The notes under the pieces are model-generated. The model was given only the letters and a program-made list of their open reading frames with translations, was not told the DNA's origin and did no database searches. A DNA stretch of 29,563 nucleotides from an uncultured Nitrososphaerota archaeon (lineage in GTDB: Archaea > Korarchaeota > Korarchaeia > Korarchaeales > Korarchaeaceae): positions 13,806-43,368 of the forward strand of contig CAZUBM010000018.1 of NCBI GenBank assembly GCA_964618805.1, given 5' to 3'. The position numbers and the translations under genes are program-made. Shown here piece by piece: positions 21,209-29,563 of the stretch (position 1 is the stretch's first letter; every line of letters starts with the position of its first letter).

Positions 21209-21246
21209 GATTTGATGTTAAACTGGGATTATAAAATGATCTTTAC

Positions 21247-21516
21247 CTAGCCGCCGCCTACTGGCGGGAATATGACAATAAGATCTCCATCTCTAACCTT
21301 CTCGTCTGGTTTAGGCCATCTTTCATCCCTCATTAGATGAAACCCTCTCTTTAGTGTCCCATCTCCGTTTAGCAATCTTTCTTTTAGCCTAGGTTTAACA
21401 CTTGCTAGTTCTTTTACAGCATCTAAGATCGTTGCTCCATCAGGAAGTAGCACTTCAATTTCAGAAGTACCTGCTTCCTCTCTGAAGATGGAGAACAGTT
21501 TGAACCTTACCTTCAT
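21247..21516 (-). CDS. MoaD/ThiS-family ubiquitin-like small protein (SAMP-like)
   Basis: Beta-grasp pattern and C-terminal IFPPVGGG; ATG 21516 lies about 25 bp downstream of TTTAAA (21541-21546). Confidence 0.92.
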   Translation of the reverse strand: MKVRFKLFSIFREEAGTSEIEVLLPDGATILDAVKELASVKPRLKERLLNGDGTLKRGFHLMRDERWPKPDEKVRDGDLIVIFPPVGGG

Positions 21517-21577
21517 TTCTATATTAACATCTCCCACATGTTTAAATATGTCTCACTTTCCCTCGGCCAATGTTTCT

Positions 21578-23507
21578 TTAATTATTCCCTTTTCCAATGA
21601 TTTTTCCTTTACATTGTAATGTTCCCTGTATTTTCAAATGTTCTCCCTCGAAAAACAAGAGCCTTATCGCATTCAAGGTTACCACAAGCGACAATCCTAC
21701 ATCCCCAACACCAACAGCAACCCACAAGGGTACCTTGCCCAGAGCAGCCAATAACGCAAGAGCAAGCTTAATTGTGACCGATGCTATGATGTTCTGCTTT
21801 ACTACACCCACGGTTTCCCTGCTTAAGTCTATTAAGTATGAAAGCTTTCCTATGTTATCCCTAAGCAAAACTATGTCTCCAGCCTCTATGGCAGCATCAC
21901 TGCCTATTCCACCCATCACAATGCCTACCGATGATCTCGCTAAGGCTGGAGCATCATTGATACCATCACCAATCATTGTGGTAACGATACCCTTTTTTGT
22001 AAGCTTTTCAATCACGTTTACCTTGTCTTCTGGCAATAAGTTCGCTCTAAAGATCTCTATTCCTATTTCTCTTGCTATAGCCTTGGCTGTATTCTCGTTA
22101 TCGCCTGTCAGCATAAGAGTTTTCAGCCCTAGCTCCCTCAACCTGCTTAATAGAGGAATTATTTCTGCTCTTAGCGCATCTCTAAGGCCTATAACACCAA
22201 CCAGTCCCTCTTTATCCATCACAAAAACGCACGTTTTTCCTCCAGATCTGAGTTTAGAGACAATTTTCTCATAATCTGAGTTGGATCCCTTAATCATCGT
22301 CTCAGATCCCATAGCATACCAAGTACCATCTATCTTGCCAGAGACGCCCATTCCGATGTGAGCAATGAAACTGTCAGGCTCAACGAACTCTATCCCATCT
22401 TTCCTTGCCTTCTCAACAATTGCCTTTGCAATCGGATGTTCAGATCTGCTTTCTAGGGAAGCAGCTATTCTCAACAAGCCTTCAGGAGAGATGCCATCTT
22501 TCAGAGGTATCACATCTGTTACCTCTAATTCACCTTTGGTAAGAGTTCCTGTTTTGTCAAACGCGAACACCTCTGTTGAAGCAACAGTCTCAAGATATCG
22601 ACTTCCTTTAATCAGAATGCCCCTTCTTGTTGCATTAGTCAAGGCGGATACCATAGATACAGGGATTGAAATAGCAAGTGCACAAGGACATGAAATTACG
22701 AGGAAAGAGAGCGATCTATAAATCCAAGATGCCTGAAGTGTGCCGTACCTTAGAGCTGGAACAGCTATGGAAAGAATAGCAAGCGCTATAACAGATGGAG
22801 TATAGTAGGTAGAGAATTTCTCAGTAAACCGCTCGTACCTGGACTTGCTTTTACTGTACTGCTCTACCAGCTCAAGTACTCTAGCAAGGACTGTATCATG
22901 CTTTTTCTTGATTACCCTTATCCCTAAGTAACCATCTATATTCAGCGTTCCAGCGTATACCATGTCTCCAGGCTTTTTCTCTACAGGAATAGATTCTCCA
23001 GTAAGAGGAGCCTCATTAACTGAGGATCTGCCCTTTACTATGATTCCATCAAGTGGTATCTTATCTCCTGGTCTACAGATTACTATATCTCCCAATTCAA
23101 CCTCTTCTACTGGAACAATGGCCTCGATCCCCTTCTTCTTAATAACCGCTTTCTCAGGAGAGGTCTCCATTAGATCTCTAATTGACTTTCTGGCCCTGTA
23201 ACTTGTATATCTCTCCAAGAAGCTTGCAATAGAGAAAAGAAAAATCACAGCAGCCCCTTCCTCAACTTCACCTATTAAGAAAGCTCCTATTCCTGCTGTT
23301 ACAACAAGGAGTTCTACATCAAATCTACTTTTGTAAATGAGCTCCCTTCCAGCCTCCAATACTAATCGATAACCTGATATTATTGAAGCAAGTGCGTAAA
23401 GTAGGAAGGCTATTTTTGTATTTAGAATTATTCTTTGCGAGATTATAGCCATAAAAAGCAGAATTCCGGATAAAAAAACCTTCTAACGAATTCTGTTTTA
23501 AATTCAT
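21578..23507 (-). CDS. P1B-2-type heavy-metal (Zn/Cd/Pb) P-type ATPase, no N-terminal metal-binding domain
   Basis: LTGES, SCPCAL, FDKTGTLT, SEHP and GDGINDAP motifs; Lys in the penultimate TM and DVG in the last TM. The main ORF starts at 23452, but the first TM extends to ATG 23507 if the 7-nt run at 23472-23478 is read one base shorter. Confidence 0.92.
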
Positions 23508-23618
23508 GATATCTCAATATACTCTCCTCTGCGCGTTCAGCGCCGTGAAAGGCATTAGTTTTTAACAATTCGGCGCGCGCCAAACAAACTACTTAATTTC
23601 TAAACAGCCCAGCACGCA

Positions 23619-24084
23619 CTATTTTAGTGGCTCCACGAAGGTTCCATACCCCGGTTTTCCCACTACTTCTCCATTTTCCATGACTACTTCACCCCTGACC
23701 ATCGTTAATACGGGTATACCCCTAACTTTCAACCCATCATATACATAGAGATCTCTGGCTTTGCTGTACATTTTTCGGCTCTTATCGTCTTCTCTTTCTT
23801 GGGATCCACTACGACAAGATCTGCGTCAGAGCCTATTTGTATAGTTCCTTTTTTGGATAGACGCCAAAGATCTTGGCTACCGATTTGGAAGTAATCTCGG
23901 CAAATCTCATAAGAGAAATTCTCCCCAAGTTCACTTGAGTCAGTAAGAGTGGAAGCATCGTCTCGAGTTGTGGACCCCCTGCATATGCTTTCCAGATGTC
24001 GATCCATCCTGGATCCTTCTCCTCTTTTGTATATGGTGCGTGGTCGTTGACAACGATATCGATGGTGCCATCATTTAAACCTTT
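23619..24084 (-). pseudogene. C-terminal remnant of a cyclic amidohydrolase (allantoinase/dihydroorotase/dihydropyrimidinase family)
   Basis: KGLNDGTIDIVVNDHAPY...GGPQLETMLP...AKIFGVYP / KKGTIQIGSDADLVVVD / YDGLKVRGIPVLTMVRGEVV...G.PGYG. Frameshifts at runs 23849-23854 and 23771-23775; N-terminal part absent. Confidence 0.88.
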
Positions 24085-24250
24085 CAGCTTCTCGTTTAGT
24101 GTAAAACGAACCTACTGGTTTCGAGGGATCTTGGAAATCTGGATCATCCTCGTTGACAAGTACCTGTGTTACTATCATAGCAGCTTGGATGTCTAATTCA
24201 TACTCTTTCAAATAGTTTCTTAATGTCTGTTGTAACATATAACCTATCTG
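24071..24250 (-). pseudogene. arcC: Internal fragment of carbamate kinase
   Basis: QIGYMLQQTLRN...IVTQVLVNEDDPDFQDPSKPVGSFYTKREA matches the carbamate kinase signature region; both termini are missing. Confidence 0.85.
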
Positions 24251-24258
24251 ACGCGCGT

Positions 24259-24310
24259 ACGATGAGTAGGAGAGAAGCACTAATGAGGAGAGTTCACGGA
24301 GCCCAGCTGA
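24259..24310 (+). ncRNA. Candidate archaeal box C/D guide sRNA
   Basis: C box ACGATGA (24259-24265), 14-nt guide, D' CTAA (24280-24283), C' TGAGGA (24284-24289), guide, D box CTGA (24307-24310). 52 nt, intergenic, followed by a T tract. Confidence 0.55.
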
Positions 24311-24319
24311 AAAATCTTT

Positions 24320-26214
24320 TTAGGCTATTTTCAAAAATGAAATTATCCTCCAAACTAAACCAGCAAATAAAAGACCATAAATCATTGAAGTTATCGTCAA
24401 AGCTACTGCTTTTTTAAATCCGAATTCTTTGATAAGTACCCCTAAAGCAATTATACATGGAATCCCAATGGTGGTTGCTATGCCAAATGTGTATATTTGA
24501 ATTGGAGTTAACATTAAAGATATTTTACTGCCAAGGACTGACATAAGCATTGCCCCAGTTAAATCCTTCTGCAAAAAACCAAAGACCAGAGGGATAATGG
24601 TTAGAGTAGGTAATCCTAACCAGATAGCGATCGGTGAAAGGGGCTTCAGTATAATGGTGGTAAGGTCTGTTAGATCCAGAATACCATAAGCAATTCCTCC
24701 AAGTGCTAATAGGGGGATAACTATATACACAAAATCTTTCATCCTAATCCAGCTTTTAGCAAGAACATTTTTAATCAAAGGTCTTCTGTAGGGAGGCAGT
24801 TCTAAAAGCAAAGGTTCACTCTTTATGTGGATAATTCTTTTTATCCCAAAGGCCCAGATTAAACCTGCAACGAGCAAAGTAACAAAAACAGAAAAAGCTA
24901 GCTTTATACCTCCATAAAATCCAACTATCCCCATTATTATTGCAGTTCTTGAGGAACAAGGTATGAAAGCAAGTAGTGAAGCAGTATGGAATTGCTCTTT
25001 CTTAGATGACAAGACTCTAGTAGCCCTAGTTGCTGGTGCGGTACATCCCAAGCCTAATATTAAAGGAATAAATGATTTCCCGGGCAAACCTAATTTTCTC
25101 AAAAACCTTTCTATATTAACAATAAATCTTGAAAGAAGTCCTATGTCTTCTAGTAATCCCAGAAGTAAATAAAATAAAAATACATAAGGCAAAGCAATAG
25201 AAACACCTGCTACAAGTCCGGTTAAACCTTGAGCTATTATCGTAGTAATAATAGAAGGTTCTACTGCGCCAAAGGACGATAAAAGGCTCTCAGTCAAATC
25301 CATAAGGGCTCCTTGTATCAAATTGCCAAGGTATAAAAGTATTCCGAAGATGGAAAGAAGGAATAGGCCAGCAATAAGTGGGCCCCAGACTTTATGCAAG
25401 AGGACTCGGTCGGTCTTTCCTCTTATTTTTTCTTTTCTTAAGGAAGTTATCTGAGTAACTTTTTCTGCTATGAATGAAGCTGTACCATACCTAGTTATGG
25501 ATATATCTTCTGCAACTTTTGGATGATCTTTTAAGTTTTCTTTAGCCTCTTCGATTGCCCTCTCGTCCTTCAAATATTTATAAAAATGTTCATCTCCTTC
25601 CAAAACCCTTAGTGCTATAAACCTCTTTGGTATAGAAGTTTCTTTTATCTGTGATGATATTTTATTTATTGCCTTTTCTATGTGATCATCATATCTAACA
25701 ATGAAAGTTCTCTTTGGTATTTTTTTTTAATTTTTAAAACTGCGTCTACAATCCTGTCTATTCCTTTTTTTGTTAGAGGATTTATGGGAATTACAGGAAT
25801 ATGAAGAATTTTTTCTAGTTTTTCGCAATCAATTTCTATTCCCCTTTTCTTAGCATCTTCTACAAAATTTAAAGCCATAATAGTGGGTATTTTTGCCTCT
25901 AGGATCTGCAAAGCCATGTAAAGACTTCTCTCGAGAGAGATTGCATCGGCAATTACTATTGCTCCATCTGCCTCTTCTTCAAACAAAACCCTTTTAGTAA
26001 CTTTCTCTTCTTCACTTCTATCAGAAATAGAATATATCCCTGGAGTATCCACAAACTCAATTTCTGTATTGTTAATCTTCTTTTTGGCTTTAGTCACTTC
26101 AACAGTAGTTCCAGGGTAATTGGATACCGTAACTCTTGGACCAACTATTGCATTAAGTAAAGAAGATTTTCCTACGTTTGGCTGACCGATTAATAATATT
26201 TTAAGACTTTTCAT
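24320..26214 (-). CDS. feoB: Ferrous iron transporter FeoB, split by a frameshift at an A9 run
   Basis: GQPNVGKS, NYPGTTVE and DTPG; membrane part has LEDIG, GLGCTAP, PCSSR and LELPPY. The two ORFs join via IPKRTFIVRYDDHIE...LRVLEGD if the A9 run (25720-25728) gains one base. Confidence 0.9.
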
Positions 26215-26815
26215 ACTTTATTACCTCAATTTGTTTCGCTATATCTTTATCTAAAACAAATTTTTTATTTTTCACTACAACAACAATACAATTCGGGATT
26301 TCATTTATTATTTCTATTTTTTCTCCTGGATGTATTCCCATACTAACCAATCTCTCAAATAATCTAATGTTAGCGTTAATATCTATAATTAAACCTTCTT
26401 CTTGTTTGAATTCTGTTAAAGGAACGCCTTTCTTTTTGAAAGTTGATAGTTTTTTGATGGTATCAATAACTTCTATAGAAATATAATGCTCTAGAATATT
26501 AGCTGCCTTAATTGCTTCTTCATCGCTCCTTCTTTGCTTAAAATAGTTTTCAAGAACAGAATGCTTTTTGATAATAACATTTGCATTAACTTGCCCTTCC
26601 TTCGTCAGTTGTATATACTTTCTTTGAGATTTATTTTCTGAAGAAACTTTAACCAAACCCTCTTCTTTAAGTTCCTTTATTGCTTTAGACACGAAAGAAG
26701 GAGAAACAGTAACTTCTAGTTTCATAGATTTCAAAGGGATTCTTTTATTCTCCCTGCCAAGTACTTCTAATATATCTTCTTTCACTATTTTTAAAATATC
26801 AGATTCTTTGGCCAT
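26201..26815 (-). CDS. DtxR/MntR-family metal-dependent regulator with C-terminal FeoA domain
   Basis: wHTH (VSPSFVSKAIKELKEEGLV), LTKEG...KHSVLE...LEHYIS dimerisation domain, RLVSMGIHPGEKI FeoA/SH3 domain; overlaps the feoB start. Confidence 0.88.
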   Translation of the reverse strand: MAKESDILKIVKEDILEVLGRENKRIPLKSMKLEVTVSPSFVSKAIKELKEEGLVKVSSENKSQRKYIQLTKEGQVNANVIIKKHSVLENYFKQRRSDEEAIKAANILEHYISIEVIDTIKKLSTFKKKGVPLTEFKQEEGLIIDINANIRLFERLVSMGIHPGEKIEIINEIPNCIVVVVKNKKFVLDKDIAKQIEVIKYEKS

Positions 26816-26874
26816 ATTATCACTACAATTATCATGGTTAATAATTTTTCTTTTAGGGAAGGCGGCGGAATTAG

Positions 26875-26951
26875 ACATGATTTGTGGATAAAGGAAGTTG
26901 CCGAAGGCAATTTGGGGAAATCTTTGATTTGCCTTTTACCCGCTGTTAGGC
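26875..26951 (-). mobile_element. Integron attC-like recombination site with damaged R' core
   Basis: 24 bp after the MBL stop, the minus strand reads GCCTAAC (RYYYAAC). Arm GCGGGTAAAAGG pairs with CCTTTATCCAC leaving one extra base. Inner hairpins AAATC-AAA-GATTT and TTGCC-TTC-GGCAA follow, then AAATC-ATGT where GTT is expected. Confidence 0.6.
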
Positions 26952-26974
26952 GAATTGCAAATCGAGGATACCTT

Positions 26975-27613
26975 TTATCTAATTTCAATTATCTTTCCTG
27001 CTCCTCCCTCGATATATTTCTCTGGATAAAGAGATCTTATCTTTAATTTATATCGAGTGCAGTGAGTAGGACAAATCAAATCCAAGTCTTTCAAGGATTC
27101 AGGCCTAGTCCCATGCAACCCCCCTATAATACCATAAACTCTGCCAAATTGAGAAGCTGTTTTAAGAATATGCTCCATCCTTGGGTGAGAGCATCCTGCT
27201 ACGATTACAATACCTTTTTCTGTCTCAACGCAGAGGAATTGTTCTATTCCCTCAAGCTCACCTGTAGAGTAAATCCCTTCGTAAAGCTTTGTAGGCTTTT
27301 TAACTTCAATGACCTCCCTTGCATTCTTTGCTTCAGAGAAATAAGAAGGAATCCAGAGTTTTACTTGATTATTTAAGCGAAGAAAAGATGACAATCCGCC
27401 TATATGATCCCAGTGGAGATGAGAGATAAAAACATCTCCTATTTCTTTTGGATTTATTTTAAGTTTTTGCATATTTGAAAGCAAAATCCTTCCGTTTGTT
27501 CCGGTATCAAAAAGGATTTTTCTTCCCTTAGCTTCTACAAGTGTAGAGAAACCCCAATCAGCTTGAAGATCTTTTCTGAAAGCGGTATTATCATAAATAA
27601 TGGTAACCTTCAT
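26975..27613 (-). CDS. MBL-fold metallo-hydrolase (COG1237 type)
   Basis: IIYDN, DWGFS, ILFDTG, SHLHWDHIGG, GCSHP, IGGLH and PTHCT motifs; GGGGTGA Shine-Dalgarno before ATG 27613. Confidence 0.92.
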   Translation of the reverse strand: MKVTIIYDNTAFRKDLQADWGFSTLVEAKGRKILFDTGTNGRILLSNMQKLKINPKEIGDVFISHLHWDHIGGLSSFLRLNNQVKLWIPSYFSEAKNAREVIEVKKPTKLYEGIYSTGELEGIEQFLCVETEKGIVIVAGCSHPRMEHILKTASQFGRVYGIIGGLHGTRPESLKDLDLICPTHCTRYKLKIRSLYPEKYIEGGAGKIIEIR

Positions 27614-27751
27614 CTTCACCCCCCTTATGCGCGTTCTCCATCGCACCTGTATAACCTACTTTTACACCTTTCTCTTCCAGATATATTCCCCGTTCGTAGA
27701 TGAACAAAGATCTGGAACAATTTCATGGACCTTCTATGACATTTTTGCACT

Positions 27752-28135
27752 CTAGGAGAACGATATTCCTTTTTTAGAACTAACTACATTATAGTTGCGA
27801 ATTCCTGAAACATAACCTCTCTGCCTAATTAGTAAACATATATTGCAAATTCCATGACATATCTCTAGATTAGAGAGATCTTTTTTTACTAGCGCTGAGC
27901 TAAATCTTTCAATAGCGTTCCTTATTTCAGGATCGATGCTAAGCACGTCTAGCGCTTTTCCTCTTATTCCTTTAAGGAAATGGCTCACGCTTGGTTGAGA
28001 GATCTTCAAAAGGCTCGCAATTTCGGCTTGCTTCAGATGAAATTTCTCGTGTAACACTCTGACAATTCCCCTCTTTACGGCTGGCAGAATGAACCTCGCA
28101 CTTTCTTCGCAAGGTAGTAGCAAGCTATTCACCAT
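27752..28135 (-). CDS. Archaeal HTH transcriptional regulator (COG2522-like) with Cys motifs
   Basis: LPCE...ILPAVK...LKQAEIASLLKISQPSVSHFLKGIRG HTH and ICHGICNIC. Start ATG 28135; the longer track ORF is antisense run-through of cooC. Confidence 0.85.
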   Translation of the reverse strand: MVNSLLLPCEESARFILPAVKRGIVRVLHEKFHLKQAEIASLLKISQPSVSHFLKGIRGKALDVLSIDPEIRNAIERFSSALVKKDLSNLEICHGICNICLLIRQRGYVSGIRNYNVVSSKKGISFS

Positions 28136-28139
28136 CGTA

Positions 28140-28179
28140 ATATTACAATTGTCATATTTAAATAATGCCGCTGTAATAT
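28140..28179. promoter_or_regulatory. Symmetric bidirectional promoter/operator ATATTACA-N7-TATTTAAATA-N7-TGTAATAT
   Basis: The palindromic TATA (28155-28164) and the 8-bp inverted arms (28140-28147, 28172-28179) share one dyad axis, between divergent ATGs at 28135 and 28194. Confidence 0.7.
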
Positions 28180-28193
28180 CTGCTCGATTAAAA

Positions 28194-29090
28194 ATGAATA
28201 GACGGGAAAATAAAAAACTCGCTGGTAAAAAAATAGGAATACTGGGGAAAGGAGGAAGTGGAAAAAGCACTATTACGGTCTTATTGGCTAAAGCTCTCAG
28301 AAAGTACGGATACGATGTTTGTGTATTAGATGCTGATTCAACCAATATAGGGCTTCATCAAGCATTAGGGATAGATAAACCCCCTGCATCTCTTATAGAT
28401 TATTTTGGAGGAACTGTGTTTAGCGGAGGATTAGTAACTTGTCCGGTAGATGATCCTACTCCTTTGCCTGGAGCTGAGATTTCTTTGAATAAGCTTCCTC
28501 ATAAATATTACACCCAAAGCAAAGAGGGGATATTCTTCCTAGTAGCGGGAAAAATAGGAGATAAGGGACCGGGAGCAGGATGCGATGGTCCTATCTCTAA
28601 AATAGCCAGAGATTTAAAAATATACGGGATTGGAAATTATCCTGTAACTTTAATAGATCTCAAAGCAGGTCTGGAAGATCTTGCTAGGGGAGTAATCACT
28701 AGTTTAGATTTGGTAATTGTAGTGGTGGACCCCACTAATGCTTCTATTCAAATAGCAGCGGATATAAAAAATATGGTAGACCAAATAAAGGCTGGAAAAT
28801 TGCCCGCCACTAAACATTTGAAAAATCCTGAACTTGTTGAGATAGCAAATAAAATATTCCTAGAGGCTAAAAACACAGATGTTTTAGTAATATTGAACAA
28901 GATCGGGAATAAAGAGACAGAAAGCTATGTAAAAAGGGAACTAAAAAAGAGAGGGATAGAGCCTATAGGAACAATCCACGAAGATCACTCAATTTCCTTA
29001 TCTTGGCTAAAAGGACAACCTCTTGAGAATGTTAAGGCCGAGACGGACGTAGAAAAGTTGATTAAACGACTAGAGGCGGTGAGTATATGA
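28194..29090 (+). CDS. CooC/AcsF-like (MinD/ParA-class) P-loop ATPase, atypical Cys motif
   Basis: GKGGSGKST, LDADSTN.GL..ALG, GAGCDGP, IDLKAGLEDLARGV, VVVDPT and ILNK motifs; start ATG 28194. Confidence 0.85.
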   Translation: MNRRENKKLAGKKIGILGKGGSGKSTITVLLAKALRKYGYDVCVLDADSTNIGLHQALGIDKPPASLIDYFGGTVFSGGLVTCPVDDPTPLPGAEISLNKLPHKYYTQSKEGIFFLVAGKIGDKGPGAGCDGPISKIARDLKIYGIGNYPVTLIDLKAGLEDLARGVITSLDLVIVVVDPTNASIQIAADIKNMVDQIKAGKLPATKHLKNPELVEIANKIFLEAKNTDVLVILNKIGNKETESYVKRELKKRGIEPIGTIHEDHSISLSWLKGQPLENVKAETDVEKLIKRLEAVSI

Positions 29091-29115
29091 ATAAAAAGAT
29101 TAAAAGGGGGATTAA

Positions 29116-29563
29116 ATGAGAAATAGCATTAAGCCAAGTTCAGAGGGTTACTTTGTTCTACTACAAAGGAATCGAAACTTTCGCATTTTTTGGCTCGGCA
29201 GAATCGTCTACCTAACAGGAAACTTTTTCCGCTCAATCGCCGTTTCGACGATGCTTTATCAATTAACTGGTTCCGGACTTGCACTTGGCGCATCCTTCGG
29301 CTTTAATACTCTGCCACTTGTAATAGCCAGTCCATACGCAGGCGTCATCGCTGATAGGCATGATCGAAGAAGGATTATGATCGTTGCCGCCCTGAGCACC
29401 GCAAGTATTGTCCTCGGCTTTCTTTTGATAACTAACGTTGAGCTCGTTTGGTTGGCCTATCCAATCATTGTTTTGCTCACTATCGTAGGAGCATTTTCCG
29501 CTGCGGCACATGATGCATGGATGCCAGATCTTGTCACAAAAAAGCAGTACCCGCTTGCAAACG
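29116..29563 (+). CDS. MFS transporter (DHA3/MFS_3-like), partial at the window edge
   Basis: Not in the ORF track (no stop in window): RNRNFRIFWLG...YQLTGSGLALG...AGVIADRHDRRRIMI (MFS motif A)...MPDLV...LAN. Confidence 0.9.
   Translation, partial: MRNSIKPSSEGYFVLLQRNRNFRIFWLGRIVYLTGNFFRSIAVSTMLYQLTGSGLALGASFGFNTLPLVIASPYAGVIADRHDRRRIMIVAALSTASIVLGFLLITNVELVWLAYPIIVLLTIVGAFSAAAHDAWMPDLVTKKQYPLAN

Follow-up and report, generated by a model that had tools for sequence, protein, structure and literature searches.

Here we describe a short palindromic element found in a stretch of 29,563 nt (hereafter the window) of an uncultured Nitrososphaerota archaeon assigned to the Korarchaeaceae (contig CAZUBM010000018.1). 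The element lies on the minus strand between a gene encoding a metallo-β-lactamase (MBL)-fold hydrolase and an iron-uptake unit (the feo unit) composed of a DtxR/FeoA fusion gene (dtxR-feoA) and feoB. A sequence-only reading of this region had proposed that the element is the remnant of an integron attC site and that the neighboring genes, including the iron-uptake operon, are former cassettes locked in place. Our results indicate that the stretch 26872–26951 is very probably a decayed attC site marking the 3' end of a former integron-type cassette that carried the MBL-fold gene; the proposal held for the MBL gene and was not supported for the feo unit. The source genome is a metagenome-assembled genome (MAG) made of 62 contigs (labeled G000, the window being on C18). 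The genome is archaeal: RNA polymerase subunit N was detected with PF01194 (102.3 bits), a profile that, among 14 control genomes, matched only the four archaeal ones.

The element starts 23 nt after the TAA stop of the MBL gene. The string noticed initially (26951–26875, 77 nt in all) opens with a perfect RYYYAAC core, as previously stated, and the degenerate attC proper covers 77–80 nt (Table 1). A covariance model, R1, built from 78 related copies, the window copy among them, recognized it with 75.1 bits (E 5.6e-17); the next match in the window (E 0.63) falls inside dtxR on the opposite strand, leaving a single element in 29.6 kb. The R' box is decayed. Aligned with the R1 consensus AAAaCGUUauaug, the window copy reads AAAUCAU---GUC, meaning that CGTT was replaced by CATG with a 3-nt gap and that the crossover triplet was lost, in agreement with the earlier suggestion that the GTT had been deleted or mutated. 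The ATG at 26878, inside this decayed box, opens the long version of the DtxR-FeoA open reading frame (ORF). Contigs of the Logan collection assembled from hydrothermal-vent metagenome runs are identical to the window from dtxR into the element as far as 26915, and many other metagenome contigs sharing the core carry ...CGTTAT at the R' place (loose ends at 26881). When folded as single-stranded DNA, the window copy gave z-scores of -0.86 to -1.98 with a weak or absent L-box stem. Of four intact copies, folded as stretches without the R'' box, three formed the stem with two hairpins at z-scores of -3.4 to -4.2. Folding energy alone is not diagnostic for the window copy.

The element belongs to a widespread family. 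We scanned a collection in which each prokaryotic species is represented by one genome for exact occurrences of CCAAATTGCCTTYGGCRACTT, a 21-nt motif corresponding to the second hairpin (TTGCC-TTC-GGCAA) and its flanks, and retrieved at least 124 stretches where, by our own arithmetic, about one is expected by chance. Among the matches listed, the motif occurs in records of Anaerolineales, Atribacterota, Patescibacteria, Dehalococcoidia, Fervidobacterium, Altiarchaeum, ANME-1, Methanoperedenaceae, Thermoplasmata, Pacearchaeota and many others. From 80 fetched loci we obtained 81 distinct copies, of which two (L079 and L135) are apparent chance matches inside coding sequence and four (L069, L091, L123 and L139) have no 5' half. 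The resulting alignment, A2, contains 78 rows (74 fetched copies and four from the genus of the window) and yields the consensus nnnTAAC-AG-CGGATAAAAGG-[variable hairpin]-CCCAAATTGCCTTCGGCAACTT-CTTTTATCCGC-AAAAC-GTTAnnnGAAAT. A family member is ~80 nt long: its RYYYAAC box is followed by the first arm of an 11-bp stem, two hairpins, the return arm of the stem, the 5-nt spacer AAAAC and a GTTRRRY box. The AAC and GTT triplets are nearly invariant in the 78 aligned copies, and the AAC columns form standard pairs with GTT in 66–69 of them. A strict regular expression fitted 38 of the 81 copies; among these, the box-to-box length is 78–89 nt, the commonest boxes are ATATAAC, GCCTAAC and GTATAAC on one side and GTTAGGC, GTTATAC and GTTATAT on the other, and the spacers are unequal, AG (33/38) facing AAAAC-like 5-nt spacers.

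Further support for a conserved fold comes from the pairing statistics. For the named structure (R box, L box and two hairpins), 83.9% of the alignment cells pair, versus 77.9% in shuffled alignments (none of 500 as high) and 29–47% after sliding the partners; in the L-box helix, pairing reaches 91.3% and both sides change in 7 of the 11 pairs. These conserved hairpins and compensatory changes would also suit a structured RNA, whether it served the MBL gene as 3' untranslated region or terminator, served the metal regulator as 5' leader or riboswitch, or came from a small RNA gene, and the element is indeed intergenic on the sense strand, with a T-rich run after the second hairpin. We nevertheless regard an RNA as very unlikely. 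On the sense strand, G-T mismatches are no commoner than A-C mismatches (24 vs 31 in the L box, 44 vs 48 in the R box), a balance that argues against an RNA, which would favor G-U, and fits a DNA site. Rfam gave no match at gathering score in the window, and an intact copy reached only E 3.9 and 9.8. The genes downstream of the copies are unrelated (a regulator, an AbiEii fragment, a methyltransferase), and an RNA would not account for the complementarity, described below, between the 3' box of one copy and the 5' box of its neighbor some 1 kb further on.

As anticipated by the sequence-only reading, the copies are tied to gene 3' ends. A same-strand ORF of at least 60 amino acids ends within 200 nt upstream in 64 of the 69 copies with enough flanking sequence, and such an ORF starts within 200 nt downstream in 46 of 63. 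Several genomes contain many copies recognized by R1: 13 in G042 (Dehalococcoidia), 16 in G038 (Altiarchaeum) and 33 in G039 (a complete Methanoperedenaceae genome), and G042 also encodes a bona fide integron integrase (IntI; 477.8 bits with TIGR02249, cut-off 265). The copies form arrays. At locus L209 (contig C2 of G038), eight elements, each following an ORF or ORF pair, succeed one another on one strand over 6.3 kb; L211 and L215 hold four elements each and L210 three. On contig C128 of G042, four elements are ~0.9 kb apart. Array members keep AAC, GTT and the stem despite wholly different stem letters, for example GCGGACATACG/CGTATGTCCGC and GCGTGTTTGCG/CGCAAACACGC.

In integrons, recombination takes place between G and TT, so that the TTnnnnn at the start of a cassette complements the nnnnnAA of the attC that the cassette itself carries. 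At 14 junctions of four arrays, taken from MAG contigs and one complete genome, we compared the five nucleotides following GTT of one element with the five preceding AAC of the next. Adjacent elements pair at 4.57 of 5 positions on average, 9 of the 14 junctions being perfect, versus 2.43 within the same element (21 elements) and 2.66 for other pairs; none of 20,000 permutations reached the observed junction mean. Because R1 pairs both boxes of the same element, any bias runs against this result. In the copies fitting the regular expression, R''/R' complementarity within an element was not significant (2.26 of 4 vs 2.06 ± 0.14 in shuffles). Cassette-rule pairing, arrays and the position 3' of ORFs therefore indicate that the family corresponds to attC sites of mobile cassettes and exclude, for the family, the RNA reading as well as the two considered next.

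The first is a miniature inverted-repeat transposable element (MITE) or a repetitive extragenic palindrome (REP)-like element with terminal inverted repeats, moved by a transposase, to which we give only a slim chance. A short palindromic repeat of high copy number in many phyla would fit, and so would the summed contig depth at the element bin (26873–27023) of four vent-metagenome runs, which amounts to 4940 (run X1), 391, 12 and 3306 (X4), versus ~14–36 in most flanking bins of X1 and lower values in the other runs; a part of the MBL gene (27175–27325) reaches 220–280. These depths sum all organisms and show only that the core repeat is very common in those communities; many related sites and MBL genes exist there. 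A transposed repeat accounts poorly for 64 of 69 copies lying just after a same-strand ORF or for regular alternations of ORF and element; the ends of the copies vary yet complement the neighboring copy rather than themselves, and no target-site duplication was seen among the copies listed. The second, which we consider extremely improbable, is that the DtxR-type regulator uses TTGCC-N3-GGCAA as its operator, or that this palindrome belongs to the promoter of the regulator. This inverted repeat does stand ~80 nt upstream of the regulator start, but the same sequence precedes unrelated genes in more than 70 contigs of other phyla, and a related metagenome contig (L217, see below) keeps the promoter-proximal 39 nt and not the palindrome.

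For a decayed attC, the following scenario can be proposed. In established integron biology, a tyrosine recombinase binds the attC as a folded single strand, and the sites of this family would do the same. Intact sites of the family stand behind single ORFs in tandem arrays. The junctions of these arrays document that cutting and joining occur within the 3' box, between its G and TT, which leaves at the start of each cassette a TTnnnnn able to pair with the nnnnnAA of its 3' site. The window site stands alone, with its GTT changed to ATG, 3 nt missing and the stem mismatched, and the MBL gene would be fixed in place, neither an integron integrase nor an array-type Xer-like integrase having been found. 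The loss of GTT together with this negative search suggests a locked, dead single attC behind the MBL gene. At present it would at most separate the MBL gene from the promoter of the DtxR-FeoA/feoB unit, a unit presumably joined to the site by some other event.

The other copies of the source genome show a similar decay. It contains four copies including that of the window; those on C11 (87% identity) and C50 (86%) were found by DNA search, a three-copy nhmmer profile added none (next E 0.81), and the diverged copy on C12 was detected by the later covariance model. In C50, AAC became AGT and GTT became GTC, and in C12 AAC became AAA, so that C11 alone keeps both triplets and three of the four copies of the genome have a broken AAC or GTT. 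The C11 copy also lies 3' of an MBL-fold gene: the two proteins are 44% identical, yet the last six codons and ~100 nt beyond are 87% identical. The C50 copy is located 12 nt 5' of a methyltransferase gene. There (L003 1559–1775), the stem has no adjoining R'' box and CGCCTAACAG is found ~190 nt further upstream; the intervening stretch is flanked by the inverted repeats CTATATTAAAAG and CTTTTAATATAG, and this looks like a small insertion into an attC. Among the genomes of the order, 4 of 38, source included, have an element match (3 of 36 in the taxonomic family). One congener, G035, has four copies according to R1; its intact copy ends ...CCGCAAAACGTTAGGCG, where GTTAGGC is the exact complement of the GCCTAAC of the window.

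The absence of an integrase from the window, already noticed by the sequence-only reading, extends to the tested ORFs of the window and, at the TIGR02249 cut-off, to the source genome. The best match reached 91.6 bits versus a cut-off of 265, with model positions 177–225 skipped. Other tyrosine recombinase matches of the genome are on C35, C29 and C5 and none on C18; its recombinases are 24–32% identical to those associated with arrays, with no close relative, and no attI-like site follows its own xerA. The xerA-like gene (G000:C4:44732–46774) is a single open frame of 702 amino acids in which ~1.25 kb separate the parts matching model positions 1–221 and 220–263; an intein or a different in-frame insertion may occupy this interval.

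In other genomes, the arrays adjoin recombinases of another type. At three archaeal loci (L209, L213 and L214) the array starts just 3' of a same-strand tyrosine recombinase gene. Two of these proteins match NF040815 (XerA_Arch) with 237.4 and 242.1 bits (cut-off 220) and the third, truncated, with 199.1; with TIGR02249 the three score 220.2, 214.7 and 175.6, under its cut-off of 265. Compared with the IntI of G042, they present gaps of 26 and 14 residues at the IntI additional domain (patch III, ALERKYP...WQYVFP). An attI-like site is found ~90–110 nt past each stop, consisting of repeats TTCG[GT]ATAT[AC]C followed by GTTnnnnnGAAAT. Four bacterial contigs (L067, L074, L110 and L114) contain only the last ~50 codons of a recombinase gene, 62–87% identical to the archaeal ones, with the same type of site behind. 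The five bases after the attI-like GTT complement the 5' box of the first attC at 5/5 positions in six of the seven loci, the remaining one (L067) having 3/5 with 1.6 kb in between. In both G038 and the complete genome G039, the array recombinase is the only XerA above cut-off, suggesting that the host's own Xer may serve the cassettes.

We tentatively suggest, as a possibility somewhat short of an even chance, that the relic belongs to an undescribed class of integrons. This class would combine a ~80-nt attC without extrahelical bases and with a near-invariant inner three-way junction, a XerA-type integrase without the additional domain, whose gene points at the array, and an attI-like site within ~100 nt. 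It would be shared by Archaea, in which an Altiarchaeum and a Methanoperedenaceae genome have the integrase gene intact, and Bacteria, in which gene remnants are present on four contigs, with a very large cassette pool in vents. The missing domain may be tied to the missing bulged bases, in view of the structural work on IntI. Among the titles and abstracts listed by searches of open-access full text, none described this family or Xer-type integrases beside attC arrays, and the 13-nt hairpin string was found in no paper of the same corpus. According to a previous survey (Ghaly et al. 2022, PMC9668308), the IntI-specific domain is present in archaeal IntIs, and a match to both profiles was needed for a call; by this two-profile rule, array recombinases of the present kind would not have been called.

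The MBL gene adjoins the element directly on its 5' side and on the same strand. Its paralogues in the source genome are 83% (C50) and 44% (C11) identical to it; across the order (37 other genomes), no match exceeds 42% identity. The C11 paralogue is preceded, ~60 nt before its ATG, by a cassette 5' edge, GTTAGGCGAAATTGC, which pairs with its own R'' at 4/5 positions plus one G-T, and the C50 paralogue has a degenerate attC remnant upstream and a 3' flank that resembles the site minus a core of ~52 nt. The MBL gene, and not the feo unit, is very probably what once arrived as a mobile cassette. For the window gene itself, the listed GTG start (27646) is less likely than the ATG at 27613, preceded by GGGGGGTGA, and an NCBIfam search for its subfamily gave weak matches only, far under the cut-offs. 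A GTTATAC at 27655–27649 (minus strand), previously put forward with reserve as the upstream cassette edge, is present; it pairs with the rule at 2/5 positions, has no attC remnant and was dismissed.

The alternative that the DtxR-FeoA/feoB unit was a large next cassette of the former array, locked by the loss of GTT, deserves separate consideration. The unit lies directly 3' of the relic on the same strand, it is foreign and AT-rich, and no DtxR-FeoA homologue was found at E <= 1e-25 in 42 other genomes of the phylum. In addition, the cassettes of the arrays L098, L121 and L136 share a leader after the crossover point, GAAATTCCGAACCCCGCC..., and ~17 nt after the R' position of the window look by eye like a shortened version of it placed before the feo promoter, although the resemblance is weak. 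However, R1 detected no family attC 3' of feoB or elsewhere in the window. A pair seen by eye after feoB (AGCCTAAA...GTTATAT, 24325–24237) was rejected, having no stem and no model match. Moreover, L217, the only close relative of the feo unit that we found, carries a DtxR-FeoA gene with 84% protein and 89% nucleotide identity to that of the window. Its homology starts not at G|TT but at 26854, a point 24 nt beyond the crossover position and 39 nt upstream of the start codon at 26815, and includes AAAAGAAAaATTATTAACC...ATG. In L217, whose contig ends inside dtxR, the same promoter and gene stand 23 nt after an aminotransferase gene, itself preceded by a NAD kinase gene, without an attC (best R1 match E 0.43). 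An iron-uptake operon as cassette cargo, as the sequence-only reading had it, is thus improbable, and the start of the L217 homology indicates that ATG 26878 is probably not the true start of DtxR-FeoA.

The three genes share one orientation (minus strand) and are AT-rich, as stated before: the GC content of 24320–27646 is 0.349 versus 0.425 for the genome, a value equally low in a fraction of 0.0003 of 3,980 equal-sized genome windows, with 0.289 for dtxR-feoA and 0.353 for feoB. They are part of a block of 4.19 kb (GC 0.365) whose order on the minus strand is the MBL cassette, the relic attC, dtxR-feoA, feoB and amidohydrolase-like fragments. In the congener G033, contig C219 matches the window on both sides (1–850 with 22701–23549, 75%; 1565–2885 with 27739–29055, 90.5%), and the P-type ATPase (82% identical) and ParA-like (89%) genes are only 714 bp apart, with a nikR-like gene instead of the block. 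This, and the lack of a DtxR-FeoA homologue at E <= 1e-25 in 42 other genomes of the phylum, speaks against vertical inheritance of the genes in synteny. Because of its low GC and its lack of synteny with the congener, the whole AT-rich block is foreign to the lineage. The 714-bp segment contains an ORF of 139 amino acids (G033:C219, ~975–1395) that resembles, by the look of its sequence, a NikR-type ribbon-helix-helix regulator; the ATPase/ParA-like interval houses different metal regulators in different species. With the other congener, the two sides differ in identity: 28398–29563 is 97.5% identical to G035:C40 and 21240–23267, on the ATPase side, 76% identical to G035:C27, both contigs ending inside these genes. 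This points to a recent exchange, mis-binning or a repeat-rich gap.

A run of nine T at 25720–25728, corresponding to A on the coding strand, interrupts the reading frame of feoB, and +1 or -2 letters would restore a single frame. One low-depth contig of run X2 is two letters shorter at 25720 (depth 2.5 of 4.8) and a contig of run X1 is identical to the window; the break could reflect a genuine frameshift, variation by strand slippage or an error in the homopolymer. On the 3' side of feoB, three short ORFs (23619–24280, minus strand) are apparent pieces of one broken gene, and one fragment faintly resembles the C-terminal portion of Amidohydro_1 (E 0.0052, under cut-off).

Several points weigh against the attC interpretation. 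The MAG is only 93.69% complete, so the absence of an integrase is no proof. The predicted 5' edge of the window MBL cassette, GTT|AGGCG (GTTAGGCG), is absent, leaving one cassette end visible. Among the Logan contigs listed, none runs through the entire element, since the pieces end at 26915 or begin at 26914, and no listed piece of run X1 covers 26915 to 27123. The evidence for the join between MBL gene, element and dtxR consists of the MAG contig and the synteny of both flanks with G033:C219; the fact that the two flanks of the block are neighbors in G033 also argues that the MAG contig was joined correctly across the repeated element. None of the contig joints in the vent-metagenome runs removes the MBL cassette; each of those listed (24960>26547 and others) comes from one contig of low depth with 90% likeness, probably derived from a relative. 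The family also departs from textbook attC sites, its 11-bp consensus stem having no bulged, extrahelical bases, its spacers measuring 1–2 nt versus 5–6 nt and its inner three-way junction being near-invariant across phyla. Finally, three 17-nt family motifs and the accession prefixes of the array contigs found no match in the data sheets of Ghaly et al. (PMC9668308), which list genomes by GCA number and few attC sites, so that this does not show the family to be absent from that survey.

Table 1. Features of the window and of related loci (columns: feature, position, strand, basis or remark)
R'' inverse core GCCTAAC, intact, then A	26951–26945	minus	sequence; fits RYYYAAC
L'' arm GCGGGTAAAAG; family consensus GCGGATAAAAG	26943–26933	minus	alignment A2
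Inner part: hairpin AAATC-AAA-GATTT (26930–26918), linker CCCCAAA, hairpin TTGCC-TTC-GGCAA (26910–26898)	26898–26930	minus	sequence, alignment, folds
L' arm CTTCCTTTATCCAC; consensus CTTCTTTTATCCGC; pairs imperfectly with L'' in the window copy	26897–26884	minus	alignment, model
Spacer AAATC (26883–26879) and R' position; ATGTCTA in place of family GTTAnnn; ATGT of the initial string at 26878–26875	26872–26883	minus	R1 alignment
Short remnant AATTCCG..CCGCC	26855–26871	minus	by eye; weak resemblance to the leader after R' in arrays L098, L121 and L136
Match to covariance model R1	26866–26967	minus	score in text; non-standard pairs marked in R box
MBL-fold hydrolase gene	ORF 26975–27646	minus	Pfam Lactamase_B 51.2 bits; TAA stop 26977–26975
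DtxR/FeoA fusion gene (dtxR-feoA)	ORF 26201–26878; likely true start ATG 26815; unit including upstream region 26201–26854	minus	Pfam FeoA and Fe_dep_repr_C
feoB	24320–26214, as two ORFs: 25678–26214 (G domain) and 24320–25603 (membrane part)	minus	Pfam FeoB_N, Gate, FeoB_C
4.19-kb block (4,189 bp), replacing the 714-bp nikR-like segment of congener G033	23550–27738		between conserved P-type ATPase gene and ParA-like gene
Array-adjacent XerA-type recombinase genes	L209 699–1860; L213 3123–4265 (minus); L214 578–1340		profile matches

Comparison with known systems places the element close to integrons. Like the archaeal MAG cassettes reported in PMC9668308, the family combines RYYYAAC and GTTRRRY boxes in an imperfect palindrome of 78–89 nt, stands after single ORFs in co-oriented arrays, has a crossover that would fall at G|TT and occurs in both domains. 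The family and the window copy also lie within the ~57–141 bp range taken for attC sites. The attC sites in the data sheets of that survey continue AAC-AAnTC... after the inverse core, unlike the present family (AAC-AGCGGATAAAAG), and singleton attCs were excluded there. One attC, without a second att site in 29.6 kb or a tyrosine recombinase on C18, corresponds to a single attC site lacking an integron integrase (SALIN), of which 3,400 were reported in 2,469 bacterial genomes, with a proposed origin by insertion at genomic attG sites (GWT), in 10.1101/2022.09.11.507474. The window case resembles these SALINs in having one cassette and one attC with no integrase or second att site nearby; unlike them, it is archaeal, its attC is decayed and its 5' junction is unrecognizable, so that an attG-like insertion cannot be shown.

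Other parallels are provided by the Vibrio cholerae repeats (VCRs) of sedentary chromosomal integrons, in which the attC sites are alike within an array or lineage and have ATAAC...GTTAT ends. The family sites are likewise much alike, but their conservation crosses phyla and domains and VCRs belong to one genus. The integrative mobile elements exploiting Xer (IMEX) and the CTX phage are Xer-dependent, and CTX integrates as a folded single strand at dif. As in IMEX, the only recombinase beside the related arrays is of Xer type, and the site after its gene has repeats resembling Xer binding arms; IMEX differ in being whole elements at dif and not arrays of single-gene cassettes, and XerA is a putative partner of the present sites.

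The window appears to contain a case of a foreign gene fixed in an archaeal chromosome as a cassette with a decayed recombination site, and the history of the MBL gene can be set apart from that of the neighboring iron-uptake operon, which would have come another way. The family as a whole is a putative attC of conserved sequence that crosses the bacterial–archaeal divide and is very abundant in vent metagenomes. In arrays it obeys the cassette rule, yet it adjoins Xer-type recombinases devoid of the domain by which integron integrases are defined. Should these recombinases be the integrases, any survey that makes the IntI-specific domain a condition would miss a whole class of gene-capture platforms, and, if this is true, the origin of integrons from Xer-like systems would become testable with natural intermediates.

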